From a virus (Duplodnaviria; Heunggongvirae; Uroviricota; Caudoviricetes): DNA of 11,680 bases. The position numbers and the translations under genes were made by a program. The notes beneath the pieces are model-generated. The model did not search any database. It was not told the origin of the DNA and saw only the letters and a program-made list of their open reading frames with translations. Location of the stretch: IMG/VR virus record IMGVR_UViG_2740892236_000004, positions 1-11,680 of that record, one strand, 5' to 3'. The first letter of the stretch is position 1. The number at the start of each line of letters is the position of its first letter. Below are positions 9,929 to 11,680 of this stretch, piece by piece.

Positions 9929-10156
9929 ATGGATGATTCAGATTGTGCTCAGGCAGTCGTGGAGCGGGCAACAGAACGCGCCCTTTGTGACCGGCTGACA
10001 CGTAAGTGCCGGGTGGAGGAGACTCCGGGCAGGCGTGTATGCGCAGACTGCGGGGGTGACATTCCGGCCGCCCGTCTGGTTGCCGTGCCGGATGCCATCC
10101 GTTGTGTGAACTGCCAGAGCATCATGGAGGCCGGTCATGTGGGTCAGCATCGTTAA
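9929..10156 (+). CDS. TraR/DksA-family C4-type zinc-finger protein
   Basis: About 75 aa. AAGGAAAAAGG lies upstream of ATG 9929. Four-Cys motif CADCGGDIPAARLVAVPDAIRCVNCQ with CxxC-x17-CxxC spacing, typical of phage TraR-like proteins. Confidence 0.75.
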   Translation: MDDSDCAQAVVERATERALCDRLTRKCRVEETPGRRVCADCGGDIPAARLVAVPDAIRCVNCQSIMEAGHVGQHR

Positions 10157-10448
10157 AGATTATGTCGTGCCGATCCTGTCGGCAACAGCCACGGCCGGGG
10201 GGATCTTTATGGCGCTGATGCGCAAAACCTTTGTCCCCCGCGAGGCCTTTGAAAAACTCTCCGACCGGGTTGAGCGGGTGGAGAGCCGGATTTCCGGCCT
10301 GCCCACGCAGCAGGAGGTGAACAGACTCAATATCGAAATCACCACCCTGCGCGGTGAGCTTAAGGCCACCAATGCCACCCTGAAATCCGTCTCCCACCAG
10401 AACGAACTGCTGCTGGAGCAGGCTGTAAGGAAAAAACACAATGAGTGA
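10137..10448 (+). CDS. Small membrane protein (single N-terminal TMD plus coiled coil); candidate lysis-associated protein
   Basis: 103 aa with GGAGG 6 nt upstream of ATG 10137; overlaps the TraR-like gene's 3' end. Hydrophobic segment VVPILSATATAGGIFMALM, then a charged heptad-like region. From memory, Mu-like phages have a DUF2730-type protein at this position. Confidence 0.58.
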   Translation: MWVSIVKDYVVPILSATATAGGIFMALMRKTFVPREAFEKLSDRVERVESRISGLPTQQEVNRLNIEITTLRGELKATNATLKSVSHQNELLLEQAVRKKHNE

Positions 10449-10731
10449 TTTCATTACTGAAGATCAGCGTCTTGTCATTCTGCGGTCGCTGGCGGATTAC
10501 AACGGCGAACTGGGCGAATCCGTGCTTCAGGACTGCCTGGATGATTACGGCCACCGCGTGTCCCGCGACACCGTTCACACCCACATTGCCTGGCTTGCTG
10601 AGCAGGGACTGGTGCGTAAGCGCACGCTTGTTAACGGTTATTTCATCGCTGAACTGACCGGCCGGGGTCAGGATGTGGCGGAAGGCCGCGCCACCGTTCC
10701 GGGTGTGAAGAAACCACGCGCAAGGGGGTAA
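10441..10731 (+). CDS. Hypothetical protein (96 aa), possibly winged-helix-like, directly upstream of the small terminase gene
   Basis: ATG 10441 overlaps the upstream stop (ATGAGTGA). The stop TAA 10729-10731 lies 2 nt before the next ATG. The fold assignment is a guess from helix-turn-strand patterning. Confidence 0.55.
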   Translation: MSDFITEDQRLVILRSLADYNGELGESVLQDCLDDYGHRVSRDTVHTHIAWLAEQGLVRKRTLVNGYFIAELTGRGQDVAEGRATVPGVKKPRARG

Positions 10732-10733
10732 CG

Positions 10734-11315
10734 ATGGATAAGCCGACGCGTGGCCGTGTACGCAAGGTGGATTTGCTCCCCGACAGCATCCGTAAGCCGC
10801 TGCTGGAAATGCTGCGTGAAAAACGCCTGACGCAGGTCCAGATCCGCGAGGAAATCAACCGTCTGATCCGTGAGGCAGGCCTGCCGGAAGAGCAGCAGCT
10901 TTCACCGGCGGCCATCAGCCGGGAAGCCTCCCGTAATGAGCTGATTGCCCGTAATCTGCGTGATTTACGCGAGCAGACAAAAGCCATGATGGCCGAACTG
11001 GGGGATAAGCCGACCGGTGAAACCACGGCACTGATTCTGGAGATGTCCCGTGCCCTGATGTACCGCCGTCTGCGTGCCGCCACCGAATCCCTGAACAGCG
11101 ACAGCGATGTGGATATGCGCCTCATCAAGGACATCCTCCTGTCGGCACAGCGTGCAGAAAGTGCCGCCGAGCGCAGTATTAAGCGTGAAAAAGAAATCCG
11201 GGCCGCATTTGCTGAAGAGATGGCGAACGCCGTCACCGACGAGTTGCGCGGCGTGGATGGCATGAGCGAGCAGATAGAATTCCGTATCAGGCAGATGCTG
11301 CTTGGTAAGGCGTAG
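10734..11315 (+). CDS. Putative terminase small subunit / DNA-packaging DNA-binding protein (Mu gp27-like)
   Basis: 193 aa with AGGGGG 5 nt upstream of ATG 10734. The N-terminal block RGRVRKVDLLPDSIRKPLLEMLREKRLTQVQIREEINRLIREAGLP matches the conserved N-terminal HTH region I recall for Mu gp27-family proteins. Position is upstream of the presumed large terminase. Confidence 0.62.
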   Translation: MDKPTRGRVRKVDLLPDSIRKPLLEMLREKRLTQVQIREEINRLIREAGLPEEQQLSPAAISREASRNELIARNLRDLREQTKAMMAELGDKPTGETTALILEMSRALMYRRLRAATESLNSDSDVDMRLIKDILLSAQRAESAAERSIKREKEIRAAFAEEMANAVTDELRGVDGMSEQIEFRIRQMLLGKA

Positions 11316-11325
11316 GAGGTGAATC

Positions 11326-11574
11326 GTGGTAACAGATAACCGCTCACTGATGAGTAGTGCTCATCAGAAGGCATTCAGTCTTGCAACACAGTTACCTCCT
11401 GAAACCATAAAAGCGTGTCGTGAGTTGACTGAACTCAGCATTGCCGGGGAAATATCCCTGGAACAACTGCATTCGCTGCTGGCAGAGGCTGTCACTGATG
11501 AGTTGAGTGGCGTGGACGTGATGACTGAAGAGCTTGAGTTCCGAATCAAAAGCATTCTGACAGGTAAAGCCTGA
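11326..11574 (+). CDS. Small ORF (82 aa) whose C-terminal ~30 aa are a diverged paralog of the small-terminase C-terminal tail
   Basis: GTG 11326 with AGGAGG 6 nt upstream. The C-terminus AEAVTDELSGVDVMTEELEFRIKSILTGKA aligns with the small-terminase tail ANAVTDELRGVDGMSEQIEFRIRQMLLGKA. The stop TGA 11572-11574 overlaps the next ATG. Confidence 0.5.
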   Translation: MVTDNRSLMSSAHQKAFSLATQLPPETIKACRELTELSIAGEISLEQLHSLLAEAVTDELSGVDVMTEELEFRIKSILTGKA

Positions 11575-11680
11575 TGAACAAAGCCAAAGAAACGTCTCCT
11601 TCACTGATACAAATGACGCCTCCCCGCAAAATTGATCTGTCCGGTGAAAAAGCCCTGCTGGGCGTGGATGTGCCGGACAG
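11574..11680 (+). CDS. 5' end of the next gene, probably the terminase large subunit by position; runs off the window
   Basis: ATG 11574-11576 overlaps the upstream TGA. Open frame to the window end (MNKAKETSPSLIQMTPPRKIDLSGEKALLGVDVPD...). Identity inferred only from gene order. Confidence 0.35.
   Translation, partial: MNKAKETSPSLIQMTPPRKIDLSGEKALLGVDVPD

Follow-up and report, generated by a model that had tools for sequence, protein, structure and literature searches.

Satellite elements encode small proteins, such as Ppi of SaPIs and Rpp of PICIs, that interfere with the phage terminase. In temperate phages, both lambdoid and Mu-like, mosaic joints are familiar from the work of Hendrix and colleagues: recombination at short homologies, or between non-homologous sequences, leaves incomplete copies of genes, and ORFs fused to one another, where modules meet. 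In phage P22, residues 140-162 of the small terminase subunit (TerS) gp3 bind residues 1-58 of the large subunit, TerL (review PMC9611059).

The DNA analysed here (11,680 nucleotides of a Mu-like E. coli prophage, hereafter the window) carries an 82-codon reading frame, ORF82, between the gene of a Mu Gp27-family small-terminase candidate (gp27) and TerL (Table 1). ORF82 is chimeric in composition, is present in some close relatives and absent from others, and lies in a cassette with defined boundaries. As at other phage mosaic joints, the flanks are near-identical, the divergent cassette is sharply bounded and marked by a shift in GC, part of a neighbouring gene is present a second time, and close relatives are polymorphic for the insertion. 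Unlike at those joints, the junction lies inside a coding sequence and in frame, yielding a translatable fusion that retains the small-terminase C-terminal peptide and the overlap of its stop codon with the TerL start. The likeness to the P22 gp3 tail is that the copied segment (tail2) reproduces the extreme C-terminus of the small-terminase candidate, is predicted to form a loop and a short helix, and is encoded right beside the N-terminus of TerL; ORF82, however, is without the rest of gp27, and the binding of gp27 to TerL is itself putative, by analogy. With Ppi and Rpp only a speculative functional analogy can be drawn, in that a small protein would act on the way terminase subunits interact; there is no homology, and it is the phage itself that carries ORF82, in between its two terminase genes. 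On the whole, we consider it probable that ORF82 is a chimera formed at a phage mosaic joint, bearing a weakly constrained relic of the gp27 tail and likely translated in order to feed TerL. It looks like ordinary phage mosaicism and not like a new packaging subunit.

Table 1. Genes and elements at the gp27–TerL junction (positions in the window).
Feature	Position	Strand	Basis or remark
gp27, Mu Gp27-family small-terminase candidate, 193 aa	10734..11315	+	PF11985 and phrog_426 matches
tail1, genuine gp27 C-terminal tail, residues 161-193 and TAG	11214..11315	+	hhalign to ORF82 50-82
Variable junction cassette, separating types A, B and C	~11240..11620	+	Sliding-window identity, GC shift
ORF82 Shine-Dalgarno, AGGAGGTG	11314..11321	+	Read from sequence; overlaps gp27 TAG stop
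ORF82, chimeric ORF, 82 aa and stop, phrog_30922 member	11326..11574	+	ORF call, phrog_30922
X-derived part of ORF82, codons 1-55, three predicted helices	11326..11490	+	HMM and hhalign to X, AF2
tail2, copied gp27 tail, ORF82 residues 50-82 and TGA	11473..11574	+	BLASTP, hhalign
Putative recombination joint, codons 52-55 (L-A-E-A), where X-like and gp27-like similarity overlap	11479..11490	+	Inferred
TGATG, overlap of ORF82 stop and TerL start	11572..11576	+	Read from sequence
TerL 5' end, runs off the window	11574..11680	+	TerL of locus L001; codons 1 to ~16 (to ~11620) in the variable cassette

The gp27 protein matches PF11985 over its full length (Pfam, E 3e-33) and phrog_426, 'terminase small subunit' (E 9e-55), and its RefSeq relatives are labelled 'phage protein Gp27 family protein'. 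At locus L001, which is 99% identical, TerL is complete and has a match to phrog_2 ('terminase large subunit', E 6e-43). ORF82 matches phrog_30922 end to end (residues 1-82 on profile positions 1-82, E 1.1e-55) and is labelled a hypothetical protein in RefSeq genomes. Its GTG start codon, replaced by ATG in all lineages other than that of the window, stands 6 nt downstream of a GGAGG Shine-Dalgarno (SD) motif. The spacing and sequence of this motif are kept across all loci of two prophage types, those with ORF82 (type B) and those with a tailless gene, X (see below), in the same slot (type C); a third type, A, lacks ORF82. The stop/start overlap with TerL (TGATG or ATGATG) is present in every ORF82 variant. 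No promoter or terminator was found in 10700-11680, and no Rfam family in the window.

These three prophage types are 93-100% identical outside the variable cassette, as measured by sliding-window comparison of loci L001, L002 and L003. The cassette runs from the 3' half of the gp27 tail through the slot gene to about codon 16 of TerL. The GC fraction drops from ~0.59 to ~0.48 at ~11320 and is 0.38-0.50 within the cassette; that of TerL codons 1-16 is 0.375, vs 0.56 for the rest of the gene, and identity is back to 95% or more from ~11621. Within this prophage group, the genes on either side have diverged to a pS of 0.1-0.2. ORF82 is carried by ~24 of 5426 genomes, and ~207 E. coli records are without it. 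Since the arrangement recurs in ~24 complete and diverse E. coli genomes and in several independent assemblies, it is not an assembly artefact.

The similarity between the two tails, first reported in the initial annotation, extends over gp27 163-193 and ORF82 52-82, with 20 of 31 residues identical, 26 of 31 similar and no gaps (BLASTP E 1e-12). Profile-profile comparison aligned only ORF82 50-82 on gp27 161-193 (hhalign, E 1.3e-9), and gp27 matched the phrog_30922 profile (E 6e-8). Judged by these comparisons, the similarity is far above chance and the tails are homologous. ORF82 carries the gp27 tail motif, A-x-A-V-T-[DE]-E-L-x-G-x-D-G-M-S-E-x-L-E-x-x-I-x-x-x-L-x-G-K-A, which is kept in the gp27 of E. 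coli, Salmonella and Citrobacter and is present even in a Vibrio phage small terminase. At the level of the 16 invariant gp27 positions, tail2 keeps 13; R172 (to S), G176 (to V) and S178 are altered, and the variants V56A, G62S, L70P and A82V/S occur. The synonymous codon pairs listed in the initial annotation are correct. DNA identity over the last 34 codons is 63% (64/102) and, in a Nei-Gojobori codon alignment of 30 codons, there are 16.3 synonymous differences at 20.2 sites (pS 0.81, saturated) and 13.7 nonsynonymous differences at 69.8 sites (pN 0.20). The view of the initial annotation that the divergence is old, and not due to assembly, agrees with this saturation and with the recurrence of the arrangement. 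At synonymous sites, tail2 differs less from the gp27 tail of O157 (pS 0.48) than from tail1 beside it, and some of its alleles (LESRIRGILTGKA) are even closer to the O157 tail. A full-length gp27 bearing tail2, which would be the donor allele, was not found in a search of 5.8 billion proteins or in an exhaustive profile search.

Beyond the 33 homologous C-terminal residues, the resemblance to the Mu Gp27 family ends. The remaining ~160 positions of gp27 have no counterpart in ORF82, far from the coverage of most of the ~173 PF11985 positions that marks a family member, and a Pfam scan with E up to 10 reported no PF11985 match in ORF82 or in two of its variants. In terms of sequence, ORF82 as a whole protein is outside the family (PF11985/DUF3486; phrog_426). 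Profile-profile comparison found no gp27 similarity in the X-derived part. The idea of an internally deleted mini-gp27, made of an N-terminal HTH and the tail and suggested by a by-eye likeness of LPPETIKACRELTELSIAGEISLEQL to gp27 LPDSIRKPLLEMLREKRLTQVQI, was rejected, there being no profile-profile alignment beyond the tail.

The N-terminal part of ORF82 resembles instead a family of small genes, X, found in the slot between gp27 and TerL and encoding 65 residues in Salmonella and Citrobacter (X65) and 67 in one E. coli-like lineage. ORF82 residues 1-56 align to P0132, a tailless ORF of 67 residues that fills this slot in a syntenic prophage (HMM, E 1.3e-10). With residues 4-50, the X65 of Citrobacter gives an ungapped alignment (hhalign, probability 78%, E 1.9e-5), and the Salmonella protein P0134 matches positions 5-47 of phrog_30922 (E 0.007). 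These alignments point, with moderate confidence, to homology between the N-terminal part of ORF82 and X65. About 16 Salmonella clusters of 65-residue homologues occupy the same slot and overlap TerL by ATGA, as does the Citrobacter X65; the 65-residue proteins of the two genera are P0134-P0149. ORF82 shares with X this slot, directly after gp27 and directly before TerL, as well as the start context with its own SD motif, the N-terminal ~50 residues and the stop overlapping the TerL start. In contrast, only the E. coli 82-residue form (phrog_30922) ends in a gp27 tail; none of the other X homologues does. A scan of species-representative genomes with the gp27 profile returned two loci only, the Citrobacter locus and a 244-bp fragment. 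X65 evolves with an omega of 0.22-0.33 (P 0.02 to 2e-4), which by this codon-based measure marks it as a real gene under purifying selection in Salmonella, more clearly so than ORF82 (omega ~0.55). That the N-terminal two thirds of ORF82 belong to a separate small gene family, tailless in the same slot of Salmonella and Citrobacter, had been missed in the initial annotation.

The two tails differ sharply in their recent evolution. Across the same 11 loci, tail2 shows 13 synonymous and 21 nonsynonymous changes (omega ~0.5, nominally below 1, P 0.04), vs 29 and 2 for the gp27 tail (omega ~0.02; Fisher P 2e-6 for the change counts). The constraint on tail2 is relaxed relative to that on the gp27 tail, and the strong purifying selection typical of bona fide gp27 tails was not seen in tail2 over these loci. 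The full ORF82 shows 31 synonymous and 54 nonsynonymous changes, with a pooled omega of ~0.55 that is nominally below 1 (P 0.006), the pooled counts being inflated by recombination among alleles and not equivalent to a proper phylogenetic test. For the N-terminal part, pairwise omega is 0.5-1.7 (not significant) and pooled omega 0.59 (P 0.05). The omega of gp27 is 0.02-0.07, with ~0.03 as the counterpart to the ~0.55 of ORF82. Variable sites per codon position number 12, 14 and 17 in ORF82 vs 3, 3 and 44 in gp27, and six genomes that share one identical gp27 accession have five for ORF82. Because pooled omega is nominally below 1, some protein-level selection may act on ORF82, its tail included. 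Frameshifted or truncated versions exist; the 82-codon frame is intact in 10 of 10 further B-type loci, most B-type loci having been found via intact proteins, which biases this count toward intact frames. Coding in the antisense strand or in an alternative frame was considered and rejected, since in no frame do the variable sites follow a codon period; the other forward frames of the ORF82 region contain 10-11 stops, and the antisense frames are partly open.

It had been claimed in the initial annotation, from the large share of synonymous changes between the tails, that both copies are under purifying selection. The tails of ORF82 orthologues do not bear this out, and the low pN/pS between tail1 and tail2 is uninformative because the divergence can predate the fusion, with each tail then part of a full-length gp27 in different phages. 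Absence of ORF82 from all relatives had also been named as an outcome that would speak against a selected copy; it is absent from ~90% of close E. coli relatives, not from all, which goes half of that way. The further suggestion of a modular swap was essentially right, the unit being a small cassette rather than the whole small-terminase gene. The other suggestion, an alternative or regulatory packaging subunit, is taken up below as a rather unlikely reading.

From the composition of the locus, we infer that recombination joined two parental arrangements. Codons 1 to ~55 derive from the accessory gene X, found in the gp27–TerL slot of some Mu-like prophages of enterobacteria. The last ~30 codons are the 3' terminus of another gp27 allele, a diverged one, which adjoins the start of the TerL gene. 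At a short microhomology, A-x-A (GCN-NAN-GCY), an illegitimate crossover would have joined in frame a type C-like left arm (gp27-tail1, RBS, X) and a type A-like right arm, in which the gp27 tail directly overlaps TerL. This A-x-A pattern is found in gp27 (ANA), in ORF82 (AEA) and in the type C X gene (AHA). The phage retains one complete gp27 with its own tail, and tail2 is probably a relic that has lost most of the gp27-tail constraint. The SD motif and the position of the start codon are conserved, the frame is open, and its stop codon still overlaps the start of TerL. Conservation of this translation architecture, but not of the tail, makes the delivery of ribosomes to TerL the most likely role. 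ORF82 would be translated through and, by translational coupling within the late operon, bring ribosomes to the TerL start, its amino-acid sequence being of little importance; the frame would thus be kept open mainly for passing ribosomes on. In type C prophages a 120-bp gap lies ahead of TerL, so that coupling is not obligatory in this phage group. The coupling proposal is drawn from the stop/start overlap, and the RNA near the TerL start has no unusual structure (z +1.05) of a kind that would tie it to upstream translation.

Alternatively, ORF82 could be a functional packaging accessory whose gp27-derived tail binds the N-terminal region of TerL, as P22 small-terminase tails do (PMC9611059). 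Either the X domain would be tethered to TerL or ORF82 would compete with gp27. It would then regulate how packaging is initiated, or serve as a decoy when related Mu-like phages superinfect. We regard this as rather unlikely. It agrees with the retention in tail2 of most gp27-invariant positions and of the same predicted loop and short helix, with a pooled omega nominally below 1, and with a strong SD motif, a start that is conserved and an uninterrupted frame at 11 loci. The spread of B-type prophages over ~24 diverse complete genomes implies that the fusion is compatible with phage spread, and purifying selection on X in Salmonella implies that the slot gene does something. However, constraint on tail2 is ~25-fold lower than on the gp27 tail of these genomes, gp27-invariant positions are substituted (in one allele a proline enters the terminal helix), the codon-position profile is flat and disrupted alleles exist. 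Most of the closest relatives do without ORF82, the other X homologues are all tailless, and no defence-system model was matched (PADLOC; ORF82, P0134 and P0132, E up to 0.1). What conservation tail2 has may partly reflect recombination with functional type A gp27 tails. The premise is also putative: with its omega of ~0.02 the gp27 tail is, by analogy with P22, a good candidate for a TerL-docking segment, although TerL binding by it is only putative. On these evolutionary data a functional tail2 is unlikely; by the same analogy, ORF82 may have a weak TerL-binding role. The stronger version, in which the slot protein captured the TerL-docking peptide of TerS and was selected as a mimic tuning or blocking assembly of the terminase holoenzyme, appears improbable.

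It is also unlikely, and clearly more so than a packaging accessory, that ORF82 is a non-functional scar, needed neither for TerL expression nor as a protein and simply not yet deleted. Its near-neutral evolution and the ~207 relatives without the ORF, which indicate that it is easily lost, would fit, as would a TerL start that is not occluded by RNA structure. The O157 gp27 tail resembles a hybrid of the tail1 and tail2 types, such as recombination between the repeats would leave after deleting the ORF. Against this, the SD motif, the start position and the exact stop/start overlap are kept across alleles that differ at 10-20% of residues, and pooled omega is nominally below 1. Moreover, ~85 substitutions have introduced no stop or frameshift in the 11 loci, which makes selection for an open frame plausible, in a sample that is biased. 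Very improbable, finally, is the main reading of the initial annotation, in which the 3' end of gp27 was duplicated in tandem within the locus and the two copies then diverged over a long time, both under selection; the N-terminal part of ORF82 would in that case have arisen de novo, out of intergenic or duplicated sequence. The homologous tails lie in direct orientation, 259 bp apart, and the pN/pS between them is low; yet the spacer is the X gene, with tailless homologues in the same slot, and GC changes at the joint. In addition, tail divergence exceeds that of the flanks, being saturated (pS 0.81 vs 0.1-0.2), so that the tails diverged in different lineages, long before the phage group radiated, and tail2 is nearer to the O157 gp27 tail than to its neighbour.

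If the chimera at a mosaic joint is the correct reading, the locus is a clean and well-bounded example of mosaicism creating reading frames, with an accessory gene fused in frame to a small-terminase C-terminal peptide and with natural 'before' (types A and C) and 'after' (type B) genomes available. X represents a family of small genes, hitherto unrecognised, that lies between the terminase genes in Mu-like prophages of enterobacteria. In annotation, ORF82 is best entered as a hypothetical protein of chimeric make-up whose C-terminus derives from gp27, and the label of a second terminase subunit should be avoided. A functional tail2 would make the locus a rare natural case in which a packaging module contains a mimic of a docking peptide; if tail2 acts as a mimic, it could affect packaging timing, or exclude Mu-like phages whose TerL recognises that tail allele.

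In the AF2 model of ORF82, helices are predicted at residues 4-22, 25-39 and 45-60 (pLDDT ~80-88), and tail2, like the gp27 tail, as a flexible loop followed by a short helix. Foldseek with this model gave no significant match in BFVD or PDB. The AF2 model of gp27 (pLDDT 57) is too poor for a fold search, and no solved relative of gp27 was found by sequence. The literature on Mu gp27 and DUF3486 yielded nothing on function. A co-varying 'specificity cassette', in which the gp27 tail is matched to the TerL N-terminus, does not hold strictly and was set aside: the two TerL N-termini found with tail1, those of types B and C, are very different from each other, and among Salmonella loci differing gp27 tails stand alongside nearly the same TerL N-terminus. 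P0013 (291 aa), taken up as a possible gp27-ORF82 fusion, proved to consist of an upstream gene of the VpaChn25_0724 family joined to gp27 and is unrelated to ORF82.

The window comes from a Mu-like (Sp18-like) prophage of E. coli and represents its late-operon region, in which the genes follow in the order Mor, lysozyme, Rz/Rz1, TraR/DksA, DUF2730, VpaChn25_0724-family protein, gp27 (the small-terminase candidate), ORF82 and the start of TerL (the large terminase). For TerL, the full-length sequence was taken from L001 (99% identical), and it matches phrog_2 'terminase large subunit' (E 6e-43). No experimental work on Mu gp27 was found in the literature, so 'small terminase' is still an annotation for this protein; sequence searches retrieved no gp27 relative with a solved structure. 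In one public contig, the VpaChn25_0724-family protein and gp27 are joined in a 291-aa read-through fusion (P0013; ...PRARGVTMDKPTRG...; window equivalent 10441-11315), and the stop codon separating the two genes has therefore been lost there.

Coordinates of the features in the window
Feature	Position	Remark
DUF2730 gene	10137-10448	
Mosaic block within DUF2730 gene	10240-10390	sharply bounded
VpaChn25_0724-family protein	10441-10731	
TAA stop	10729-10731	lost in P0013 contig
gp27	10734-11315	PF11985 E 3e-33; phrog_426 'terminase small subunit' E 9e-55
Shine-Dalgarno (SD) of ORF82	11314-11321	AGGAGGTG
ORF82	11326-11574	82 codons
ORF82 tail	11494-11574	
TGATG	11572-11576	ORF82 TGA overlaps TerL ATG
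TerL	start 11574	runs on downstream

The initial annotation had recognized in the end of ORF82 a copy of the gp27 C-terminal tail, and this homology is certain. Residues 163-193 of gp27 and 52-82 of ORF82 align without gap with 20 of 31 residues identical (BLASTP E 1e-12), and a profile-profile comparison finds gp27 161-193 and ORF82 50-82 as the sole aligned region (E 1.3e-9). Over the last 34 codons, the DNA of the two tails is 63% identical, with pS 0.81 (saturated) and pN 0.20 (Nei-Gojobori). At synonymous sites, the ORF82 tail is nearer to the gp27 tail of O157 (pS 0.48) than to the adjoining one. The O157 tail, in turn, is intermediate between the two, resembling the window's gp27 tail in its 5' half and the ORF82 tail in its 3' half. 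Moreover, the ORF82 tail alleles LESRIRGILTGKA (L025, L026) come still closer to the O157 tail LESRIKGILLGKA; thus, these tails behave as still-exchanging alleles. The gp27 tail motif is recognizable even in Vibrio phage vB-Vv-ZX4290, in a protein annotated as small terminase (PV485168.1 13449-13529; 67% identity with the ORF82 tail over 27 residues); among the parts that this query can detect, the tail is therefore the most widely conserved.

The rest of ORF82, its N-terminal two thirds, has another source. Used as a query, ORF82 retrieved just a few clusters, among them a 67-aa protein (P0132) that matches residues 1-56, then diverges and lacks a gp27-like tail. Its gene fills the gp27-TerL slot of a syntenic prophage (L003), where it follows gp27 and the same SD. 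In Citrobacter braakii, the slot holds a 65-aa ORF that aligns without gap to ORF82 4-50 (hhalign E 1.9e-5) and whose stop overlaps the TerL start. With a profile of this slot gene, X, about 16 clusters of 65-aa proteins were found in Salmonella, all in the same slot and none with the tail; one of them matches the independent phrog_30922 profile of the 82-aa form (positions 5-47, E 0.007). Some Salmonella prophages, like O157, are without X. Purifying selection acts on the 65-aa genes (omega 0.22-0.33; P 0.02, 2e-4 and 1.5e-3), which shows X to be a real accessory gene. Since tail-less homologues of its N-terminal part occupy the same slot, ORF82 is a fusion of X(1-55) with a gp27 tail. One Salmonella form (P0134; L014 3090-3287) shows a weak, short and possibly spurious match to positions 917-974 of the 1338 of phrog_220 'minor head protein and DNA pilot' (E 2.9e-5).

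Three junction arrangements are found: in type A (O157; L002), the gp27 tail overlaps TerL; in type B (window), gp27 is followed by the X-tail fusion and TerL; in type C (L003), by the 67-aa X gene, a spacer and TerL. Identity among them is 93-100% on either side, up to about 11230 and from about 11621 onwards, and the differences are confined to the stretch between. Types B and C share 97% identity across the gp27 tail and SD and 75-80% over the 5' portion of X; past about 11420, they are unrelated. The type C spacer (L003 4205-4323) is a 120-bp non-coding stretch without similarity to the gp27 tail; type C TerL has a different N-terminus, 5 residues longer (MSKRTGEEKIKPDTGLIKLS...). GC content falls from 0.59 in gp27 to 0.50 for the X part, 0.48 for the copied tail and 0.375 for TerL codons 1-16; the remainder of TerL has 0.56. 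At the presumed joint, all three sequences have an A-x-A stretch (GCN-NAN-GCY). The simplest history suggested by these sequences would be one illegitimate crossover at this stretch, which would link, near codon 55 within X, a left arm resembling type C to a right arm resembling type A, the latter cut just 5' of the gp27 tail. The exact donor of the tail was searched for and not found, and none of 5426 complete E. coli genomes has type C.

The best explanation for ORF82 is thus a chimeric reading frame formed at a phage mosaic joint, a very probable origin, and not a maintained second terminase-tail gene. The initial annotation had taken both tails to be under purifying selection. However, the low pN/pS between the paralogous tails tells little, as it can date from the time when each served a complete gp27; the informative comparison is among ORF82 orthologues, where the constraint proves mostly gone.

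Selection on ORF82 and its neighbours (substitutions counted along a minimum spanning tree of 11 B-type loci; P versus neutral)
Region	Pairwise omega	Synonymous	Nonsynonymous	Omega	P
ORF82, full	0.42-0.89	31	54	about 0.55	0.006
ORF82, N-terminal part	0.5-1.7, never significant				
ORF82, tail	0.2-0.7 (P 0.03-0.6)	13	21	0.49	0.04
gp27, full	0.02-0.07	109	11	0.03	3e-54
gp27, tail		29	2	0.02	4e-17
TerL	0.04-0.10				

The counts for the two tails differ strongly (Fisher P 2e-6), and variable sites at the three codon positions number 12, 14 and 17 in ORF82 versus 3, 3 and 44 in gp27. In six complete genomes, the gp27 protein has a single accession and ORF82 has five. ORF82 changes at positions invariant in gp27, including L70P in one allele, and frameshifted or truncated alleles exist (P0008-P0011). 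Together, these data indicate that constraint on the copied tail is mostly lost. The main rival, an ORF82 that is a weakly selected accessory protein binding TerL, would agree with the weak constraint that may remain on its tail, and is nonetheless unlikely given these counts; exchange with functional type A tails by recombination may account for part of the tail's apparent conservation. AF2 predicts three helices in the X part (4-22, 25-39, 45-60; pLDDT about 80-88), then a disordered linker (59-65) and a low-confidence helix (68-79); the poor gp27 model (pLDDT 57) ends in the same loop and short helix. In P22, TerS 140-162 binds TerL 1-58 (PMC9611059), and by analogy the predicted shape would fit a flexible docking peptide. 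As by-products, the analysis yields the X slot-gene family and a candidate TerL-docking segment, the gp27 tail, which is very strongly conserved. Fold searches with the ORF82 model gave nothing significant, and defence-system models no match.

The SD of ORF82 is strong and lies six bases 5' of the GTG start. This SD, the start position, the 82-codon frame and the stop overlapping the TerL start are kept in all ORF82 alleles examined; the start codon is GTG in the window's lineage and ATG in all others. One RefSeq genome carrying the GTG allele has a shorter, 74-aa ORF annotated instead, from an internal ATG. Because these signals are kept, we propose that the main reason for keeping the chimeric ORF82 is its translation, as a bridge that would hand ribosomes from gp27 to TerL, its sequence being nearly free to drift. 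The 65-aa genes of Salmonella and Citrobacter keep an ATGA overlap with TerL. It should, however, be noted that RNA structure around the TerL start is not unusual (z +1.05) and that type C phages manage with the 120-bp gap, which argues against an obligate bridge. The full explanation, with chimeric origin, relic tail and a frame kept for coupling, appears reasonably likely. No promoter-like or terminator-like sites were found at the gp27-ORF82-TerL junction and no Rfam families within the window.

In a presence/absence survey of 232 E. coli complete-genome records having the region, ORF82 proved polymorphic. It is present in about 25 (identity 94-99%); about 207, including O157:H7 and Mu-like inserts in two Stx phages, are without about 258 bp, and there the gp27 stop directly overlaps the TerL start. 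The N-terminal coding DNA of ORF82 has no other occurrence across 5426 genomes. The two Stx-converting phage records with an annotated Mu-like insert and a type A junction (LC727881.1 61554-62576; LC727895.1 18512-19534) represent a Mu-like prophage nested within a lambdoid Stx prophage. Several copies of the region occur in NZ_AP022815.1 (E. coli JE86-ST05; three) and NZ_CP166879.1 (four), which suggests recent transposition or multiple lysogeny. In the second mosaic block, within the DUF2730 gene, L001 is 63-82% identical to L002 and L003, which are 100% identical to each other, between flanks of at least 95%.
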